From assembly GCA_964016885.1 (NCBI GenBank), contig OZ024755.1, positions 36,518,001 to 36,582,000 on the forward strand: a DNA stretch of 64,000 nucleotides. The letters run 5' to 3'. Within the stretch, counting starts at the first letter, position 1. The number at the start of each line of letters is the position of its first letter. Made by a program: the position numbers and the translations under genes. This document shows, in pieces, positions 1,801 to 60,211 of this stretch. The stretch is from Eledone cirrhosa. Taxonomy: Eukaryota. The notes under the pieces are model-generated. The model saw only the letters and a program-made list of their open reading frames with translations. It was not told the origin of the DNA and ran no database searches.

Positions 1801-2087
1801 TAATATATATATATATATATATAATATAAGATCAAAAGATGGTTAAAGGAGTTCCATGTATTTTATTATGCGCATTTCAAAAACAAACATCATCATGCAA
1901 CAATATTTGTGTTTTCATCAGATAAAACAGGAGAACATGATATGAAGGCTAAAAAACACTTGTGGATAGTGCAGTTTTAAATCAACATATGCATACTATA
2001 TTATGCATACTCCAGTCCTACAAACTGTAGAGTGCTTCTTATCCGATATCTGCATTGCTTTATTGTACTACAATAAAACTCACCTCC

Positions 2088-8146: not shown

Positions 8147-11100
8147 CACTTTACAGTGTATACTGGGCAAATTTTATTGTGACACAAGTGCTAGAACTTT
8201 ACAATGTGTGCTGTGTACATTATATCATGACACCACCTCTACCACTTTACAGTGTGTACTTGGTACATTATATCATGACACTATCTCTACCACTTTACAG
8301 TGTGTGCTGGGTACATTATATCATGACACAATCTCTACCACTTTACAGTGTGTACTGGGTATATTATATCATGACACTATCTCTACCACTTTACAGTGTG
8401 TGCTGGGTACATTATATCATGACACTATCTCTACCACTTTACAGTGTGTGCTGGGTATATTATATCATGACATTATCTCTACCACTTTACAGTGTGTACT
8501 GGGTACATTATATCATGACACCACCTCTACCACTTTACAGTGTGTACTGGGTACATTATATCATGACACTATCTCTACCACTTTACAGTGTGTGCTGGGT
8601 ACATTATATCATGACACTATCTCTACCACTTTACAGTGTGTACTGGGTACATTATATCATGACACTATCTCTACCACTTTACAGTGTGTGCTGGGTACAT
8701 TATATCATGACACCACCTCTACCACTTTACAGTGTGTGCTGGGTACATTATATCATGACACCACCTCTACCACTTTACAGTGTGTGCTGGGTACATTATA
8801 TCATGACACCACCTCTACCACTTTACAGTGTGTGCTGGGTACGTTATATCATGACACTATCTCTACCACTTTACAGTGTGTACTGGGTACATTATATCAT
8901 GACACTATCTCTACCACTTTACAGTGTGTACTGGGTACATTATATCATGACATTATCTCTACCACTTTACAGTGTGTACTGGGTATATTATATCATGACA
9001 CTATCTCTACCACTTTACAGTGTGTGCTGGGTACATTATATCATGACACCACCTCTACCACTTTACAGTGTGTGCTGGGTACATTATATCATGACACCAC
9101 CTCTACCACTTTACAGTGTGTACTGGGTACATTATATCATGACACCACCTCTACCACTTTACAGTGTGTACTGGGTATATTATATCATGACATTATCTCT
9201 ACCACTTTACAGTGTGTGCTGGGTACATTATATCATGACACCACCTCTACCACTTTACAGTGTGTGCTGGGTACATTATATCATGACACCACCTCTACCA
9301 CTTTACAGTGTGTGCTGGGTACATTATATCATGACACCACCTCTACCACTTTACAGTGTGTACTTGGTACATTATATCATGACACTATCTCTACCACTTT
9401 ACAGTGTGTGCTGGGTACATTATATCATGACACAATCTCTACCACTTTACAGTGTGTACTGGGTATATTATATCATGACACTATCTCTACCACTTTACAG
9501 TGTGTGCTGGGTACATTATATCATGACACTATCTCTACCACTTTACAGTGTGTGCTGGGTATATTATATCATGACATTATCTCTACCACTTTACAGTGTG
9601 TACTGGGTACATTATATCATGACACCACCTCTACCACTTTACAGTGTGTACTGGGTACATTATATCATGACACTATCTCTACCACTTTACAGTGTGTGCT
9701 GGGTACATTATATCATGACACCACCTCTACCACTTTACAGTGTGTGCTGGGTACGTTATATCATGACACTATCTCTACCACTTTACAGTGTGTACTGGGT
9801 ACATTATATCATGACACTATCTCTACCACTTTACAGTGTGTACTGGGTACATTATATCATGACATTATCTCTACCACTTTACAGTGTGTACTGGGTATAT
9901 TATATCATGACACTATCTCTACCACTTTACAGTGTGTGCTGGGTACATTATATCATGACACCACCTCTACCACTTTACAGTGTGTGCTGGGTACATTATA
10001 TCATGACACCACCTCTACCACTTTACAGTGTGTACTGGGTACATTATATCATGACACCACCTCTACCACTTTACAGTGTGTACTGGGTATATTATATCAT
10101 GACATTATCTCTACCACTTTACAGTGTGTGCTGGGTACATTATATCATGACACCACCTCTACCACTTTACAGTGTGTGCTGGGTACATTATATCATGACA
10201 CCACCTCTACCACTTTACAGTGTGTGCTGGGTACATTATATCATGACACCACCTCTACCACTTTACAGTGTGTGCTGGGTACATTATATCATGACACTAT
10301 CTCTACCACTTTACAGTGTGTGCTGGGTATATTATATCATGACACTATCTCTACCACTTTACAGTGTGTGCTGGGTACATTATATCATGACACCATCTCT
10401 ACCACTTTACAATGTGTACTGGGTACATTATATCATGACACTATCTCTACCAACTGGGTATATTATATCATGACACCACCTCTACCACTTTACAGTGTGT
10501 GCTGGCTACATTATATCATGACACTATCTCTACCACTTTACAGTGTGTGCTGGGTATATTATATCATGACATTATCTCTACCACTTTACAGTGTGTGCTG
10601 GGTACATTATATCATGACACCACCTCTACCACTTTACAGTGTGTACTGGGTACATTATATCATGACACCACCTCTACCACTTTACAGTGTGTACTGGGTA
10701 TATTATATCATGACACCACCTCTACCACTTTACAGTGTGTGCTGGGTATATTATATCATGACATTATCTCTACCACTTTACAGTGTGTACTGGGTACATT
10801 ATATCATGACAATATCTCTACCACTTTACAGTGTGTGCTGGGTACATTATATCATGACACCACCTCTACCACTTTACAGTGTGTACTGGGTACATTATAT
10901 CATGACACTATCTCTACCACTTTACAGTGTGTGCTGGGTACATTATATCATGACACCACCTCTACCACTTTACAGTGTGTACTGGGTACATTATATCATG
11001 ACACTATCTCTACCACTTTACAGTGTGTACTGGGTACATTATATCATGACATTATCTCTACCACTTTACAGTGTGTACTGGGTACATTATATCATGACAC

Positions 11101-13680
11101 TATCTCTACCACTTTACAGTGTGTACTGGGTACATTATATCATGACACTATCTCTACCACTTTACAGTGTGTGCTGGGTATATTATATCATGACATTATC
11201 TCTACCACTTTACAGTGTGTGCTGGGTACATTATATCATGACACCATCTCTAATACTTTACAGTGTGTGCTGGGTACATTATATCATGACACCACCTCTA
11301 CCACTTTACAGTGTGTGCTGGGTACATTATATCATGACACTATCTCTACCACTTTACAGTGTGTACTGGGTACATTATATCATGACACCATCTCTACCAC
11401 TTTACAGTGTGTGCTGGGTACATTATATCATGACATTATCTCTACCACTTTACAGTGTACTGGGTACATTATATCATGACACCACCTCTACCACTTTACA
11501 GTGTGTGCTGGGTATATTATATCATGACACTATCTCTACCACTTTACAGTGTGTACTGGGTACATTATATCATGACACTATCTCTACCACTTTACAGTGT
11601 GTGCTGGGTATATTATATCATGACATTATCTCTACCACTTTACAGTGTGTACTGGGTACATTATATCATGACAATATCTCTACCACTTTACAGTGTGTGC
11701 TGGGTACATTATATCATGACACCACCTCTACCACTTTACAGTGTGTACTGGCTACATTATATCATGACACTATCTCTACCACTTTACAGTGTGTGCTGGG
11801 TACATTATATCATGACACCACCTCTACCACTTTACAGTGTGTACTGGGTACATTATATCATGACACTATCTCTACCACTTTACAGTGTGTACTGGGTACA
11901 TTATATCATGACATTATCTCTACCACTTTACAGTGTGTACTGGGTACATTATATCATGACACTATCTCTACCACTTTACAGTGTGTACTGGGTACATTAT
12001 ATCATGACACTATCTCTACCACTTTACAGTGTGTGCTGGGTATATTATATCATGACATTATCTCTACCACTTTACAGTGTGTGCTGGGTACATTATATCA
12101 TGACACCATCTCTAACACTTTACAGTGTGTGCTGGGTACATTATATCATGACACCACCTCTACCACTTTACAGTGTGTGCTGGGTACATTATATCATGAC
12201 ACTATCTCTACCACTTTACAGTGTGTACTGGGTACATTATATCATGACACTATCTCTACCACTTTACAATGTGTACTGGGTACATTATATTATGACACCA
12301 TCTCTACCACTTTACAGTGTGTACTGGGTATATTATATCATGACACCACCTCTACCACTTTACAGTGTGTACTGGGTATATTATATCATGACACTATCTC
12401 TACCACTTTACAGTGTGTGCTGGGTACATTATATCATGACACTATCTCTACCACTTTACAGTGTGTACTGGGTACGTTATATCATGACACTATCTCTACC
12501 ACTTTACAGTGTGTACTGGGTACATTATATCATGACACCTATCTCTACCACTTTACAGTGTGTACTGGGTACATTATATCATGACACCACCTCTACCACT
12601 TTACAGTGTGTACTGGGTATATTATATCATGACACCACCTCTACCACTTTACAGTGTGTGCTGGGTACATTATATCATGACACCACCTCTACCACTTTAC
12701 AGTGTGTGCTGAGTACATTATATCATGACACTATCTCTACCACTTTACAGTGGGTACTGGGTACATTATATCATGACACCACCTCTACCACTTTACAGTG
12801 TGTGCTGGGTACATTATATCATGACACTATCTCTACCACTTTACAGTGTGTGCTGGGTACATTATATCATGACACCACCTCTACCACTTTACAGTGTGTG
12901 CTGTGTATATTATATCATGACACTATCTCTACCACTTTACAGTGGGTACTGGGTACATTATATCATGACACTATCTCTACCACTTTACAGTGTGTGCTGA
13001 GTACATTATATCATGACACTATCTCTACCACTTTACAGTGTATACTGGGTACATTATATCATGACACCACCTCTACCACTTTACAGTGTGTGCTGGGTAC
13101 ATTATATCATGACATTATCTCTACCACTTTACAGTGTGTACTGGGTATATTATATCATGACACTATCTCTACCACTTTACAGTGTGTACTGGGTACATTA
13201 TATCATGACACTATCTCTACCACTTTACAGTGTGTGCTGGGTACATTATATCATGACACCACCTCTACCACTTTACAGTGTGTGCTGGGTACATTATATC
13301 ATGACACCACCTCTACCACTTTACAGTGTGTGCTGAGTACATTATATCATGACACTATCTCTACCACTTTACAGTGTGTGCTGGGTACATTATATCATGA
13401 CACTATCTCTACCACTTTACAGTGTGTGCTGAGTACATTATATCATGACACTATCTCTACCACTTTACAGTGTGTGCTGGGTACATTATATCATGACACT
13501 ATCTCTACCACTTTACAGTGTGTACTGGATACATTATATCATGACACTATCTCTACCACTTTACAGTGTATACTGGGTACATTATGTCATGACACTATCT
13601 CTACCACTTTACAGTGTGTGCTGGGTACATTATATCATGACACTATCTCTACCACTTTACAGTGTGGGCTGGGTGCATTT
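8147..13680. repeat. 48-bp minisatellite, ~115 copies, derived from the RTE 3'UTR repeat
   Basis: Unit ccactttacagtgtgt(a/g)ctgggtacattatatcatgacac(ta/ca)(t/c)ctcta. Both flanks grade into a diverged RTE-3'UTR module. Confidence 0.95.
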
Positions 13681-14244
13681 TATTGTGCACCAGCACTACC
13701 ATTTTACAGAATCAGCTGGGGACATTTTATCATGGCACTCTCACTACCTATTACACCATAGACCAATCAATAGAAGAATACATAAACACACACATCACAC
13801 ACAGGCATTTCTCATTAACTAATTGCGATTCCTAAGATTAACCTATGAAATGGATGTGGTTTGTATATCTTCTTCCAGCCAAATGTTTTACACCTAGATC
13901 AACTTCTGAAGTATGAAGTGGGTAGACTAGCACGTTTATACAGCAGCATACCTTTACAAACACCCACCATTAAACTACAAAGTGGATGTAATACCCATTT
14001 TTTGCTAGGTTGATTGGCGACATTTCAAATAATCAGTCAAGGGATAAAATGATGATGAGTGAGTTTAAAATTTGATCTGTCAGCCAACACGTCTCTTCTT
14101 TTAAATTCTCCTTCAAACACTGTCTCTGGTGTGGAAATCATCTTGGTGACAACAACCTGGTCTTTTATTATAAACAATAAATTATTAAATAAAATTATTA
14201 ACCATCTTGCCAACAACAACTCTGAACACTTTTTTGAATTTCAT

Positions 14245-18951: not shown

Positions 18952-19652
18952 ATATATTTATTAAAATAACAGATTAAAGTTTAAGCAAAGAATCGCTGCT
19001 TTCACCCTTAACGGGATCTTCTGAAACTAACAAAGTCAATCTGTGAATGCAGAAGTGAATATTTCAAAAAACATTGCAACCGGAGGAAGACAGGAAGACG
19101 ATACTTTGGTTCGTGGAAACGTTCCCTGGCAAAGAACGGGAAGAAACGAATATAATACGTCATTATTTGGAGCGGTGAAAAACAATTACACGCAAAGACA
19201 AAACCACGTTTATGGTATAAAAGAAGTTGTGCGATGTTTTCGCGTATGCTTGTGTATGTACGTATATGGATGCGTGTATGTATTTATTTAATTTCAATTA
19301 CCTCTGTATTTTTTTAACTTTATTCTTAACTCTGAAGCGGAGATTCATTCAGTTTCCTAGTTAGAATTTTAGTCTACGACTTCAGTTATACCATAAACGT
19401 CGTTTTGTCTTTGCGTGCAATTGTTTTTCACTGCTCCAAATAATGACGTATTATCTTCGTTTTTTCCCGTTCTTTGCCAGGGAACATTTCCACGAACCAA
19501 AGTATCGTCTTCCTGTCTTCCTCCGGTTGCAACATTTTTTGAAATATTCACTTCTACGTTCACAGATTGACTTTGTTAGTTTCAGAAGATCCCGTTAAGG
19601 GTGAAAGCAGCGATTCTTTGCTTAAACTTTAATCTGTTATTTTAATAAATAT
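18952..19652. repeat. Inverted repeat (~280-bp arms, ~145-bp spacer), Penelope-terminal-like
   Basis: 18952-19230 is the reverse complement of 19375-19652. The ORF track shows the same peptide on both strands. The element borders (TA)n. Confidence 0.9.
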
Positions 19653-19810
19653 TTGCTCTATGGTTCTTATATATTTGATATATATTTATCCTTATCGAGC
19701 TCTCTTTGGATTTTAGTCTTCAAATTTATTATTATTACTATATATATATATATACAAAATAAAGTAATTAAGTCAAATATTTAAAATTTGGCTTCGTTTA
19801 TTAAAGATGT

Positions 19811-19865
19811 ACTGCTATATATATTTCGGTGACAGTCATTATTGGCTGTGACCTCTTCAGGCAGT
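19811..19865 (-). ncRNA. Type I hammerhead ribozyme
   Basis: Reverse complement reads actgc CTGAAGA ggtcacagcc aataat gactgtcacc GAAA tatat ATA gcagt. Confidence 0.75.
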
Positions 19866-20121
19866 CCGAATTGGTGTGGTAGAGACAGGTAGACATGTTG
19901 TTAAAGTGTTTTACTCCGTCAATACTCCGATATGTCCAGCTCCTGGTTGGGTTGTTATTTCTCTGAGGAACTGGAATCATATCTGGATATGGTGAACTAA
20001 CTGGATATGATTCCAGTTCCTCAGAGAAATAACAACTCAACCAGGAGCTGGACATATCGGAGTATTGACGGAGTAAAACACTTTAACAACATATGTACCT
20101 TTCTCTACCACACCAATTCGG

Positions 20122-20176
20122 ACTGCCTGAAGAGGTCACAGCCAAAGATGGCTGTCACCGAAATATATATAGCAGT
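20122..20176 (+). ncRNA. Type I hammerhead ribozyme
   Basis: Stem I actgc/gcagt; core CTGAAGA (20127-33); stem II ggtcacagcc/ggctgtcacc; GAAA (20160-63); palindromic stem III; AUA cleavage site. Confidence 0.82.
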
Positions 20177-20326
20177 ACATCTTTAATAAACGAAGCCAAA
20201 TTTTAAATATTTGACTTAATTACTTTATTTTACATTACTCCGGAGTAACCAAACCAACCTGCGTACTTCGTTGAGTGCTCCAATATGCATACCGAGGTGT
20301 CGGTAAACAACCAACATATACTCAGA

Positions 20327-20359
<33 letters not shown>

Positions 20360-20440
20360 AGGGGGGGGGGGGGGGGGGGGTAGAACACTGGAAGGTAATA
20401 TCCGTAGTGGTAGAGCACTCAGTCTATGGGACAAGTTAGG

Positions 20441-20588
20441 TAGAAGTGGTAATACAACAGTTAGTTCACCATACCGAAAACAATTGTTTCACCTTAGCGG
20501 ATCCTCAGGTCGTAAACGAACTGAGGATCCGCTGAGGTGAAACAATTGTTTTCAGTATGGTGAACTAACTGTTGTATTACCACTTCTA
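20441..20588. repeat. Short fold-back of a Penelope 3' terminus with a hammerhead core in each arm
   Basis: Plus strand CTGAGGA tcc gctga ggt GAAA caattg TT (20521-20550), with an inverted copy at 20473-20512. The downstream tail matches 54364-54400. Confidence 0.8.
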
Positions 20589-53589: not shown

Positions 53590-54400
53590 AATAGGTTCCC
53601 TTTACAAATACCGCTCCATGTTTAACAGACACAGGGTGAAACTAGGATACTCCTGTACTAAGAATATGAAGGCCCACATCACCAACAGCCCTAAGAGCAA
53701 AACCCCACCAGCATGCTCTTGCCAAAAGCCTGAAGCTTGTTCCCTTCAACAACAATGCAACACACCCGCTGTAATTTACAAAGCTATGGTCACTTCTAAC
53801 CGACCAAATCAACAACAAGAGGTTAAATCCGATGTAGGCATGGCAAAGGGCCGGTTTAAGGAACGCTTCCTGAACCATAAGTCGACCTTCAGATACCCGG
53901 ATAAACGATCGTCCACAAAACTTGCAAGCCCCGTATGGTCCCTCAAGGACTCAGGCATAGACTACTCCATCCAATGGAAAGCTATTTCTAAGTCCAAGCA
54001 AGGGGAAATCCGTCTTGTGGACTGTGCATTGAAGAAAGGATTTATATCCTGAGAAGATTACATAATAACGATTGCCTAAATTCAAGAAATGAACTCGTTT
54101 CACGTTGTCCACACATCTGGAAACACCTATTACATAATTACAAAGCTCCAGATTGACTCACATCAACAATCTATAATATTCTGAATAACTTGAATAATTT
54201 ATTCCGGACATCCACAGTTATCTCCCTTACATCGATCTATCATGGGTTTACCTCACCCAGGAGTGACTGTTTCTGCGCACGCGTATTCATACGGTTGTTT
54301 TTCCTTTTCCATACAACTTCATTTAGACCGAGCTGAGGATCCAAATAAGGTGAAACATTTGTTCTCGGTATCGTGAACTAACTGTTGTGGAACTACTTCT
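53590..54400 (+). mobile_element. Penelope-like element 3' part: GIY-YIG endonuclease, 3'UTR and ribozyme terminus
   Basis: FNRHRVKLGYSCTKNM; CSCQKPEACSLQQQC; VIYKA..VG.AKGRFKERFLNH. After a frameshift CGLCIEER..LNSRNELVSRCPH, with the stop at 54156. Confidence 0.88.
54327..54369 (+). ncRNA. Minimal type I hammerhead ribozyme in the Penelope 3' terminus
   Basis: accgag CTGAGGA t cc aaataa gg t GAAA catttg TT ctcggt: perfect 6-bp stem I and a GUU site. Confidence 0.75.
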
Positions 54401-54449
54401 ATATATATATATATTATACACATACATTATATACATATTATATGTATTA

Positions 54450-54646: not shown

Positions 54647-54682
<36 letters not shown>

Positions 54683-54764
54683 CAGAGAGTGTAAACACAA
54701 AAAATATCCTAAAAAATATATAAAAAATATAGATTCCAAAAAATTCACTGTACTTACTATATGT

Positions 54765-54845
54765 GCCCTTACCGCAGTTTCAGATCCCAAACAAATAGAT
54801 AATCCACGTGGATTTCCATTGAGAAAGAGATCCTCGTCAGAAGGC
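54765..54845 (-). ncRNA. Type I hammerhead ribozyme with long stem II
   Basis: Reverse complement reads gcctt CTGACGA ggatctc...gggatct GAAA ctgcgg TA agggc. Confidence 0.72.
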
Positions 54846-55344
54846 TTTTCTCTCTCGGAGAATATAAAATTCCTGAGTTCAAATTACAAACTGGCGCCAT
54901 ACAAAACTGCCTCAGAATGAGAATAAATGAAACCGCGGTAAGGGCACATATAGTAAGTACAGTGAATTTTTTGGAATTTCTATTTTTTAAATATATTTTT
55001 TAGGATATTTTCTGTGTTTACACTCCCTGATTTTATATGTTCTGGCTTGTTAATTTATTAACTTGCCATTGAACCACACTAGCATACGGTCGGACTATAC
55101 TTATGTCCCTATGTGTATTAATTACGTGTAGGAACATATACCTTTAATATTATTCTCCCCAACGGTAGAGAAACCTTTGGTCGTATGAACGGCTGCTATT
55201 TTTAGCAGCACGGGATTGACCTGACCACCTTGCTTTCTGTCTTTGCACACGGTACTAGACAAAATTGTTTCATTCTGAGGCAGTTTTGTATGGCGCCAGT
55301 TTGTAATTTGAACTCGGGAATTTTATATTCTCCAAGAGAGAAAA

Positions 55345-55425
55345 GCCTTCTGACGAAGATCTCTTTCTCAATGGAAATCCGCTTGGATTATCTATTTGTT
55401 TGGGATCTGAAACCGTGGTAAGGGC
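55345..55425 (+). ncRNA. Type I hammerhead ribozyme with long stem II
   Basis: gcctt CTGACGA agatctc [38 nt incl. aatcc/ggatt hairpin] gggatct GAAA ccgtgg TA agggc, GUA site. Confidence 0.8.
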
Positions 55426-55620
55426 ACATATAGTAAGTACAGTGAATTTTTTGGAATCTCTATTTTTTAATATATTTTTTAGGATATTTTCTGTGTTTAC
55501 ACTCCCTGATTTTATATGTTCTGGCTTGTTAATTTATTAACTTGCCATTGAACCACACTAGCATATGGTCGGACTATACTTATGTCTCTATATGTATTAA
55601 TTACATGTAGGAACATATAC

Positions 55621-56138: not shown

Positions 56139-59100
56139 TACAGTAGTCCCTTCATATTTGTGGGAGACTACTGTATGTGATATACAGTAGTCCCCTGGTA
56201 TTGTGGGGCACTACTGTATGTGATATATATGTACAGTAGTCCCCTAGTATTGTGGGGCACTACTGTATGTGATATACAGTAGTCCCCTGGTATTGTGGGG
56301 CACTACTGTATGTGATATACAGTAGTCCCCTAGTATTGTGGGGCACTACTGTATGTGATATATATGTACAGTAGTCCCCTAGTATTGTGGGGCACTACTG
56401 TATGTGATATACAGTAGTCCCCTAGTATTGTGGGAGACTACTGTATGTGATATACAGTAGTCCCCTGGTATTGTGGGGCACTACTGTATGTGATATACAG
56501 TAGTCCCCTAGTATTGTGGGGCACTACTGTATGTGATATACAGTAGTCCCCTGGTATTGTGGGGCACTACTGTATGTGATATACAGTAGTCCCCTGGTAT
56601 TGTGGGGCACTACTGTATGTGATATACAGTAGTCCCCTAGTATTGTGGGGCACTACTGTATGTGATATACAGTAGTCCCCTGGTATTGTGGGGCACTACT
56701 GTATGTGATATACAGTAGTCCCCTAGTATTGTGGGGCACTACTGTATGTGATATACAGTAGTCCCCTAGTATTGTGGGGCACTACTGTATGTGATATACA
56801 GTAGTCCCCTAGTATTGTGGGGCACTACTGTATGTGATATACAGTAGTCCCCTGGTATTGTGGGGCACTACTGTATGTGATATACAGTAGTCCCCTGGTA
56901 TTGTGGGGCACTACTGTATGTGATATATATGTACAGTAGTCCCCTAGTATTGTGGGGCACTACTGTATGTGATATACAGTAGTCCCCTGGTATTGTGGGG
57001 CACTACTGTATGTGATATACAGTAGTCCCCTAGTATTGTGGGGCACTACTGTATGTGATATATATGTACAGTAGTCCCCTAGTATTGTGGGGCACTACTG
57101 TATGTGATATACAGTAGTCCCCTAGTATTGTGGGGCACTACTGTATGTGATATACAGTAGTCCCCTGGTATTGTGGGGCACTACTGTATGTGATATACAG
57201 TAGTCCCCTAGTATTGTGGGGCACTACTGTATGTGATATATATGTACAGTAGTCCCCTAGTATTGTGGGGCACTACTGTATGTGATATACAGTAGTCCCC
57301 TGGTATTGTGGGGCACTACTGTATGTGATATACAGTAGTCCCCTAGTATTGTGGGGCACTACTGTATGTGATATATATGTACAGTAGTCCCCTAGTATTG
57401 TGGGGCACTACTGTATGTGATATACAGTAGTCCCCTAGTATTGTGGGAGACTACTGTATGTGATATACAGTAGTCCCCTGGTATTGTGGGGCACTACTGT
57501 ATGTGATATACAGTAGTCCCCTAGTATTGTGGGGCACTACTGTATGTGATATACAGTAGTCCCCTAGTATTGTGGGGCACTACTGTATGTGATATATATG
57601 TACAGTAGTCCCCTAGTATTGTGGGGCACTACTGTATGTGATATACAGTAGTCCCCTAGTATTGTGGGAGACTACTGTATGTGATATACAGTAGTCCCCT
57701 GGTATTGTGGGGCACTACTGTATGTGATATACAGTAGTCCCCTAGTATTGTGGGAGACTACTGTATGTGATATACAGTAGTCCCCTGGTATTGTGGGGCA
57801 CTACTGTATGTGATATACAGTAGTCCCCTAGTATTGTGGGAGACTACTGTATGTGATATACAGTAGTCCCCTGGTATTGTGGGGCACTACTGTATGTGAT
57901 ATACAGTAGTCCCCTAGTATTGTGGGACACTACTGTATGTGATATACAGTAGTCCCCTGGTATTGTGGGGCACTACTGTATGTGATATACAGTAGTCCCC
58001 TAGTATTGTGGGGCACTACTGTATGTGATATATATGTACAGTAGTCCCCTAGTATTGTGGGGCACTACTGTATGTGATATACAGTAGTCCCCTAGTATTG
58101 TGGGGCACTACTGTATGTGATATACAGTAGTCCCCTGGTATTGTGGGGCACTACTGTATGTGATATACAGTAGTCCCCTAGTATTGTGGGGCACTACTGT
58201 ATGTGATATATATGTACAGTAGTCCCCTAGTATTGTGGGGCACTACTGTATGTGATATACAGTAGTCCCCTAGTATTGTGGGGCACTACTGTATGTGATA
58301 TACAGTAGTCCCCTGGTATTGTGGGGCACTACTGTATGTGATATACAGTAGTCCCCTAGTATTGTGGGGCACTACTGTATGTGATATATATGTACAGTAG
58401 TTCCCTAGTATTGTGGGGCACTACTGTATGTGATATACAGTAGTCCCCTAGTATTGTGGGGCACTACTGTATGTGATATACAGTAGTCCCCTGGTATTGT
58501 GGGGCACTACTGTATGTGATATACAGTAGTCCCCTAGTATTGTGGGGCACTACTGTATGTGATATATATGTACAGTAGTCCCCTAGTGTTGTGGGGCACT
58601 ACTGTATGTGATATACAGTAGTCCCCTAGTATTGTGGGGCACTAATGTATGTGATATACAGTAGTCCCCTGGTATTGTGGGGCACTACTGTATGTGATAT
58701 ACAGTAGTCCCCTAGTATTGTGGGGCACTACTGTATGTGATATATATGTACAGTAGTCCCCTAGTATTGTGGGGCACTACTGTATGTGATATACAGTAGT
58801 CCCCTAGTATTGTGGGGCACTACTGTATGTGATATACAGTAGTCCCCTGGTATTGTGGGGCACTACTGTATGTGATATACAGTAGTCCCCTAGTATTGTG
58901 GGGCACTACTGTATGTGATATATATGTACAGTAGTCCCCTAGTATTGTGGGGCACTACTGTATGTGATATACAGTAGTCCCCTAGTATTGTGGGGCACTA
59001 CTGTATGTGATATACAGTAGTCCCCTAGTATTGTGGGGCACTACTGTATGTGATATACAGTAGTCCCCTAGTATTGTGGGGCACTACTGTATGTGATATA

Positions 59101-60211
59101 CAGTAGTCCCCTAGTATTGTGGGGCACTACTGTATGTGATATACAGTAGTCCCCTAGTATTGTGGGGCACTACTGTATGTGATATACAGTAGTCCCCTAG
59201 TATTGTGGGGCACTACTGTATGTGATATACAGTAGTCCCCTAGTATTGTGGGGCACTACTGTATGTGATATACAGTAGTCCCCTAGTATTGTGGGGCACT
59301 ACTGTATGTGATATACAGTAGTCCCCTAGTATTGTGGGGCACTACTGTATGTGATATACAGTAGTCCCCTAGTATTGTGGGGCACTACTGTATGTGATAT
59401 ACAGTAGTCCCCTAGTATTGTGGGGCACTACTGTATGTGATATACAGTAGTCCCCTAGTATTGTGGGGCACTACTGTATGTGATATACAGTAGTCCCCTA
59501 GTATTGTGGGGCACTACTGTATGTGATATACAGTAGTCCCCTAGTATTGTGGGGCACTACTGTATGTGATATACATATACAGTAGTCCCCTAGTATTGTG
59601 GGGCACTACTGTATGTGATATACAGTAGTCCCCTAGTATTGTGGGGCACTACTGTATGTGATATACATATACAGTAGTCCCCTAGTATTGTGGGGCACTA
59701 CTGTATGTGATATACAGTAGTCCCCTGGTATTGTGGGGCACTACTGTATGTGATATACATATACAGTAGTCCCCTAGTATTGTGGGGCACTACTGTATGT
59801 GATATACAGTAGTCCCCTAGTATTGTGGGAGACTACTGTATGTGATATACAGTAGTCCCCTAGTATTGTGGGGCACTACTGTATGTGATATACAGTAGTC
59901 CCCTAGTATTGTGGGAGACTACTGTATGTGATATACAGTAGTCCCCTAGTATTGTGGGGCACTACTGTATGTGATATACAGTAGTCCCCTAGTATTGTGG
60001 GGCACTACTGTATGTGATATACAGTAGTCCCCTAGTATTGTGGGGCACTACTGTATGTGATATACATGTACAGTAGTCCCCTAGTATTGTGGGGCACTAC
60101 TGTATGTGATATACAGTAGTCCCCTAGTATTGTGGGGCACTACTGTATGTGATATACATGTACACTAGTCCCCTGGTAGTGTGGGGCACTACTGTATGTG
60201 ATATACATGTA
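56139..60211. repeat. 43-bp (51-bp variant) hairpin satellite, ~90 copies
   Basis: Unit TA-CAGTAGTCCCC-tagtattgt-GGGG(C)ACTACTG-TA-tgtgata. Confidence 0.97.

Follow-up and report, generated by a model that had tools for sequence, protein, structure and literature searches.

A type I hammerhead motif with U·U at the base of stem II in a Hydra-type Penelope-like element of Eledone cirrhosa

Position 10.1-11.1, at the base of stem II of hammerhead ribozymes, is usually a purine-pyrimidine (R-Y) pair, commonly G-C, although such a pair is not obligatory. In a 64,000-nucleotide stretch of the Eledone cirrhosa genome (contig OZ024755.1, positions 36,518,001 to 36,582,000; here called the window and numbered from its first letter), a short sequence with hammerhead layout carries two opposed uridines at this place. 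The locus raises the question of whether this U·U arose by decay of a single copy or belongs to a family, and of whether RNA from that family could still be expected to cut itself.

The hammerhead at 54327-54369 and its host element

The motif occupies 54327..54369 on the plus strand and was recognized by pattern, fold and alignment to full units of its element. A 6-bp stem I (54327-54332 pairing with 54364-54369) encloses the core CUGANGA..GAAA..UH, represented by CUGAGGA at 54333-54339, GAA at 54352-4, A15.1 at 54355 and a GUU triplet ending at 54363, after which the cut is predicted. Stem II consists of 2 bp, CC/GG (54341-2 with 54349-50), capped by a 6-base loop, and the short stem III of 2 bp (2-3-bp pairing is possible) within an imperfect palindrome; both stems can pair. 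The usual, non-obligatory R10.1-Y11.1 pair is absent, and U10.1 (54340) faces U11.1 (54351) instead. The original prediction, made from the letters of the window, had spelled out this motif and placed it about 170 bp from an endonuclease stop codon; it is present letter for letter, and stem I begins 170 bases downstream of a stop at 54156. This sequence is a real minimal type I hammerhead motif.

Folding calculations for the window copy gave -4.2 kcal/mol for the hammerhead fold versus a predicted minimum of -8.6 kcal/mol, with pair probabilities of the hammerhead fold of at most 0.19. Free folding of five stretches yielded z-scores without significance and did not produce the hammerhead fold. 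The energy of a dimer through stem III is -2.9 kcal/mol for this copy, compared with -6.4 for the usual CAAUUG form.

Upstream of the motif, 53606..54156 (+) is the 3' part of the open reading frame (ORF) of a 5'-truncated Hydra-type Penelope-like element (PLE), 78-82% identical in amino acid sequence to the proteins of two other loci, L179 and L181; we refer to this family as A. Homology starts at 53606, the frame changes near 54000, and a CxCx5C linker and a GIY-YIG endonuclease precede the stop at 54154-54156. The GIY-YIG ORF that had been predicted here therefore exists as an endonuclease frame, but as a 5'-truncated, frame-changing fragment that escapes Pfam: a search with the window fragment and three full-length-like proteins gave no RT or GIY-YIG match. 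Comparison with family copies assigns 54157..54326 (+), from stop codon to ribozyme motif, to the 3' UTR or pseudo-LTR, and sequence and alignment define an element tail 3' of the predicted cut (54370..54401, +) that ends at a (TA)n tract. The entire fragment, 53606-54401, matches full units from the same genome. Since its best matches among 38 family copies compared are 87-89% identical to it, this copy is old and likely dead, as its frameshift and broken palindrome also suggest.

Our protein search scored 150 of 49,129 candidates. The downstream motif was seen at 11 of 14 other endonuclease loci, in every case with U·U, and three loci were without it. At L179 (family A) and L184 (a second family, B), an RT-linker-GIY-YIG ORF lies between two pseudo-LTRs with a hammerhead in each, the hammerheads being spaced 2,577 and 3,259 bases apart, respectively; the same arrangement of a single ORF, with RT followed by a C-terminal GIY-YIG domain and flanked by pseudo-LTRs, was found at L180, L181 and L183. 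The C-terminal endonuclease rules out the Naiad clade. Pattern searches located DKT, YRDD, CxCx5C, CxxC and CxH motifs in the element proteins, with RWR standing where the Hydra clade has RWK, and TA tracts follow the element tail in the window and at many loci. These motifs and (TA)n ends fit the Hydra clade defined by Craig et al. 2021 (PMC8557442), suggesting a PLE host with Hydra-clade protein motifs, a clade call based on the motifs. The proteins of families A and B are 36-38% identical. A third Hydra-type family is represented in the window by a 189-base piece at 1803-1991 (-), 98% identical to the ORF region of that family (L193), which likewise has a U·U hammerhead.

Conservation and abundance of the U·U core

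The original prediction regarded U·U as a real core variant rather than decay, and named a normal R-Y pair in the family consensus as evidence that would count against this. The consensus proved to be U·U: both uridines occur in 6,694 of 7,096 family A copies (anchored on downstream sequence), and they are kept while stems and loops are rewritten. Decay of a single copy is thus ruled out as their origin. Within a single family, such conservation is mostly a legacy of the master copies from which its members descend.

The pattern CTGANGATCC..GGTGAAA has 3 matches in the window and 0 in 500 block shuffles, and a looser T..T pattern likewise has 3 window matches versus a shuffled mean of 0.37 (maximum 3 in 200). 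A genome-wide descriptor search, proposed together with the prediction, returned 8,658 matches to the strict pattern in the 3.0-Gb genome, compared with 0 for its reversed control. Genome-wide, CTGANGAT..TGAAAC..GTH gave 88,138 matches versus 262 in the control, a count in which overlapping matches may appear twice, and a pattern with C at 11.1 gave 83,446 versus 9,848. U·U therefore appears to be about as common here as C-at-11.1 motifs, allowing for patterns and controls that differ, and descriptors demanding a 10.1-11.1 pair would heavily undercount hammerheads.

The U·U motifs divide into about seven groups, between which the stem II sequences are unrelated (CC/GG, CCC/GGG, UUC/GAA, AGCU/AGCU, CGC/GCG, UGC/GCA and UUCU/AGAA). 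A PLE ORF adjoins three of these groups, the third in 1 of the 8 loci fetched for that group, and one U·U group forms a 310-bp tandem array. Loci L208 (568-4836) and L209 contain head-to-tail arrays of 310-bp units (99% match), in back-to-back orientation and with a U·U hammerhead per unit, together with a roughly 490-bp array of another U·U group; this organization is retrozyme-like. Of 121 metagenome matches, 8 close both stem I and stem III (shuffled mean 0.5, maximum 4), although one appears spurious, and no PLE protein match was found near these 8. Full type I U·U hammerheads, with a PLE protein match absent nearby, were observed on metagenome contigs L060, L065, L077, L078, L081, L082 and L166.

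Recurrence within the window had also been put forward in favour of the variant. The U·U pattern does occur at both sites that were named, but their independence fails. The first, 20473-20553, is a single inverted duplication whose arms, 20441-20513 and 20516-20588, are 96% complementary; it belongs to family A, like 54327, and to an inverted, fold-back stump of a family A pseudo-LTR that alignment resolves as one insertion (20379..20588). The U·U cores of this stump, at 20521-20550 (+) and 20508-20479 (-), both have a damaged stem I. The second site, 19583-19606, lacks CUGA, reading CAGAAGA, and is a family B sequence with a minus-strand mirror at 19023. It lies in an inverted insertion of pseudo-LTR ends from this second Hydra-type element (18954..19737, by repeat and protein comparison), in which the hammerhead-like motif spans 19578..19628 (+; pattern, alignment and folding) and its mirror copy in the other arm 18978..19028 (-; inverted-repeat comparison). 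Because the recurrences comprise duplicated arms and a second family, they constitute weak evidence.

The expectation that standard searches would miss the motif was borne out for Rfam: among 74 matches at E<=1 in a scan of the window, hammerhead families were absent and only microRNA-type matches to hairpins and satellites appeared. Rfam also missed G-C motifs at 19860 and 20127, however, so U·U is not the cause of the miss, and U·U hammerheads are among those that Craig et al. recovered with RNAmotif. The G-C motifs belong to an inverted pair of another repeat (19756-20231) in which the hammerhead core has G-C and stem II is long, the cores lying at 19860 on the minus and 20127 on the plus strand; Rfam reads the hairpin as MIR807, below the gathering score. 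Inspection by eye of an inverted repeat pair at 54663-55500 showed hammerhead cores at 54840 (minus) and 55350 (plus), in which stem II looks very long and the palindrome CCGCGG provides stem III. Tandem arrays occupy 8179-13822, where long overlapping open frames have repeat-type Pfam hits, and 56259-60150, which attracts many spurious microRNA matches. Outside the window, CAGAUGA..UGAAA followed by a palindrome lies on the opposite strand just upstream of a U·U hammerhead at L204 (2760 and 3149) and L210 (3203); this antisense CAGAUGA..GAAA string, part of another repeat family, was set aside because its stem I was not found.

An A at core position 4 in family B

The family B motif has a 5-bp stem I, the core segment CAGAAGA, U·U, a 3-bp stem II and a 5-bp stem III, the last of which needs no dimer. 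With A in place of U4, the motif at 19578 is hammerhead-like and lies outside the type I class. Position 4 is A in 20,776 of 21,005 family B copies (at least 21,005 copies exist), and the other 229, spread over G, T and C, are as expected from later mutation. Over at least 200 aligned bases, 26 copies are 85 to 100% identical to the reference (median 96%). The flanks of the motif are also fairly conserved, so that the constraint may not be specific to the ribozyme. In three runs from one sample, possibly the assembly's own, no other letter reached 5% or more at the A4 site. Genome matches to CTGAAGATCCC were considered as true U4 copies and rejected, as those viewed were family B fold-back centres.

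A rarer, divergent subfamily has changed loops II and III but has kept the stems, and carries A4 in 18 of 22 copies; two of its three T4 copies are fold-back centres. At one of its loci the motif sits in inverted orientation next to an ORF piece that shares 73% identity with the main subfamily, and we infer that motif and ORF piece belong to one insertion. At loci L278 (3249) and L279 (3369), which look like one duplicated segment, the family B motif differs by a U-A change in stem II and by one additional A ahead of the second U.

Deep mutational scanning of a type III hammerhead found low activity for single changes in CUGA (PMC9901934), and U4C is the only natural change of this kind that Perreault 2011 mention (PMC3088659). 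Among the papers listed by our literature searches, a natural U4A or CAGAAGA hammerhead was not found, and the U4-to-A core of family B may be new.

Published relatives and likely function

The suggestion that the variant is lineage-specific, and by implication novel, did not survive comparison with published hammerheads. U·U has been reported in phage, axolotl and Hydra-clade families (PMC3088659, PMC7229834, PMC8557442), and U10.1·U11.1 is neither new nor lineage-specific. Perreault 2011 described U10.1-U11.1 as a natural variant, ranked it as the most active mispair and called 2-bp stems II common; among the active variants there, the PaP3 phage motif appears from figure text to be U10.1-U11.1 (PMC3088659). 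The mismatch is the same as ours, but was there a rare phage or microbial variant, whereas here it is the family consensus in an animal retroelement. The axolotl retrozyme hammerhead HHR_Amex2, of which there are about 60,000 motifs, carries U·U at the same place in helix II; in 1 h, 22% of the monomer cleaves itself, and the dimer does so to a much greater extent (Cervera and de la Pena 2020, PMC7229834). It is likewise an animal type I hammerhead with a 2-bp helix III and tens of thousands of copies; it differs in residing in non-coding 350-bp tandem repeats rather than in an autonomous element, and in having loop 1-loop 2 contacts, of which the present motif shows none (PMC7229834).

The closest relatives are in File S2 of Craig et al. 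2021, where U·U, visible as the core segments ..GAU and UGAA, occurs in 14 of 25 Hydra-clade families, from Hydra, sea cucumber and copepod; two of the Hydra rows are identical, and the text calls the motifs canonical without comment (PMC8557442). Those elements share with ours a type I hammerhead near the 3' end, an RT with C-terminal GIY-YIG, the DKT, CxCx5C, CxxC and CxH motifs, and (TA)n targets. They differ in stem II, which has 3-5 bp in Craig's U·U families versus 2 bp here, and in stem III, which here is a 6-base palindrome, unlike those of the listed Hydra families; the listed octopus family Hydra-1_Obim is not U·U, and A4 occurs in no listed Hydra family (PMC8557442). The 2014 consensus for metazoan PLEs, CUGANGA-H-G..C-GAAA, has an extra base after A9 and G10.1-C11.1 where we find U·U, and only 1 of its 56 rows, from Hydra magnipapillata, appears to be U·U (via the File S2 sequence). 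Otherwise these metazoan PLE hammerheads, found in both pseudo-LTRs, with a weak palindromic helix III, a dimer model and low in vitro activity, are of a similar kind (PMC4209133). To this published variant our results add copy numbers and covariation.

Taken as a whole, the motif is quite probably a minimal type I hammerhead that a truncated Hydra-type element carries in its 3' pseudo-LTR, with an inherited U·U, and would act in its family as a slow ribozyme with a putative cut after GUU, made mainly as a dimer or with the help of protein. Going by published hammerheads, the residues needed for catalysis (C3, G5, A6, G8, A9, G12, A13, A14 and A15.1-U16.1) are intact, so RNA of intact family A elements likely cuts itself after GUU, weakly and slowly; the U·U would stack where G-C is usual and slow the reaction to some degree. 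In most copies the palindrome of stem III reads CAAUUG, and it could pair the two pseudo-LTR hammerheads of a tandem transcript, and the combination of an unstable monomer fold with self-complementary CAAUUG fits the PLE dimer model (PMC4209133, PMC6765202). Copies end some 30-45 bases beyond the cut site, which argues that they were copied from uncut RNA, and a weak ribozyme would suit such an element. The hammerhead of the Anolis Poseidon element needs the element's protein, and its main template is uncut RNA (PMC11167929).

A competing explanation, which we think improbable, holds that the pseudo-LTR retains the motif for a structural or protein-binding role that no longer requires cutting, relaxed selection allowing U·U, a 2-bp stem II and U4-to-A to persist. 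The spread of at least 21,005 family B copies, most with A4, would suit it, as would the low activity after single CUGA changes (PMC9901934) and the finding that PLE insertion in vitro proceeds without hammerhead cleavage, with no RNA-seq reads ending at the cut (PMC11167929). Junctions, too, show no clear pile-up at the cut. Scoring a junction wherever a copy departs from the family at two upstream bases, we obtained 46 junctions at the predicted cut versus 21 three bases upstream in family A, and 341 versus 170 at the control in family B, with micro-homology confounding both comparisons; in many of the 60 cut-site loci inspected, the junction was a point change, a small indel or a micro-homology fold-back. 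Against this explanation, the core is kept in about seven groups whose stems are fully rewritten, and U·U hammerheads cleave elsewhere (PMC3088659, PMC7229834).

Still less likely, in our judgement very much so, is that the core has been read in the wrong register: the first U might be the additional base that PLE hammerheads usually carry after A9 (PMC4209133), leaving the second unpaired and C-G as the true 10.1-11.1, or an inactive fold might pair A9 with the second U. By eye, A9-U, U-G and C-G pairing is possible in families A and B, and the duplicated family B loci L278 and L279 have one more base before the second U. Yet when 46 distinct motifs with stems I and III, preselected for T..T, were compared in both registers, the U·U register was better in 45, one was a tie and the shifted register won in none, in a test where a U·U pair and two opposed unpaired uridines are indistinguishable by sequence. 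The A9-U pairing is also not extendable, by eye, in the AGCU, CGC and UGC groups, and published drawings show a U·U mismatch (PMC3088659, PMC7229834).

The slow, inherited U·U ribozyme thus remains our preferred reading for family A. For family B, it is conceivable, though doubtful, that the motif is a natural, selected hammerhead which combines U4A with U10.1·U11.1 and has kept its ability to cut, though perhaps only when the element's protein is present. Activity would mean that the accepted consensus for the hammerhead core is too narrow; inactivity, that a family of more than 20,000 copies can do without cutting. Either way, an A4 in the uridine turn of so successful a family offers a handle on whether Penelope-like elements need hammerhead cutting.
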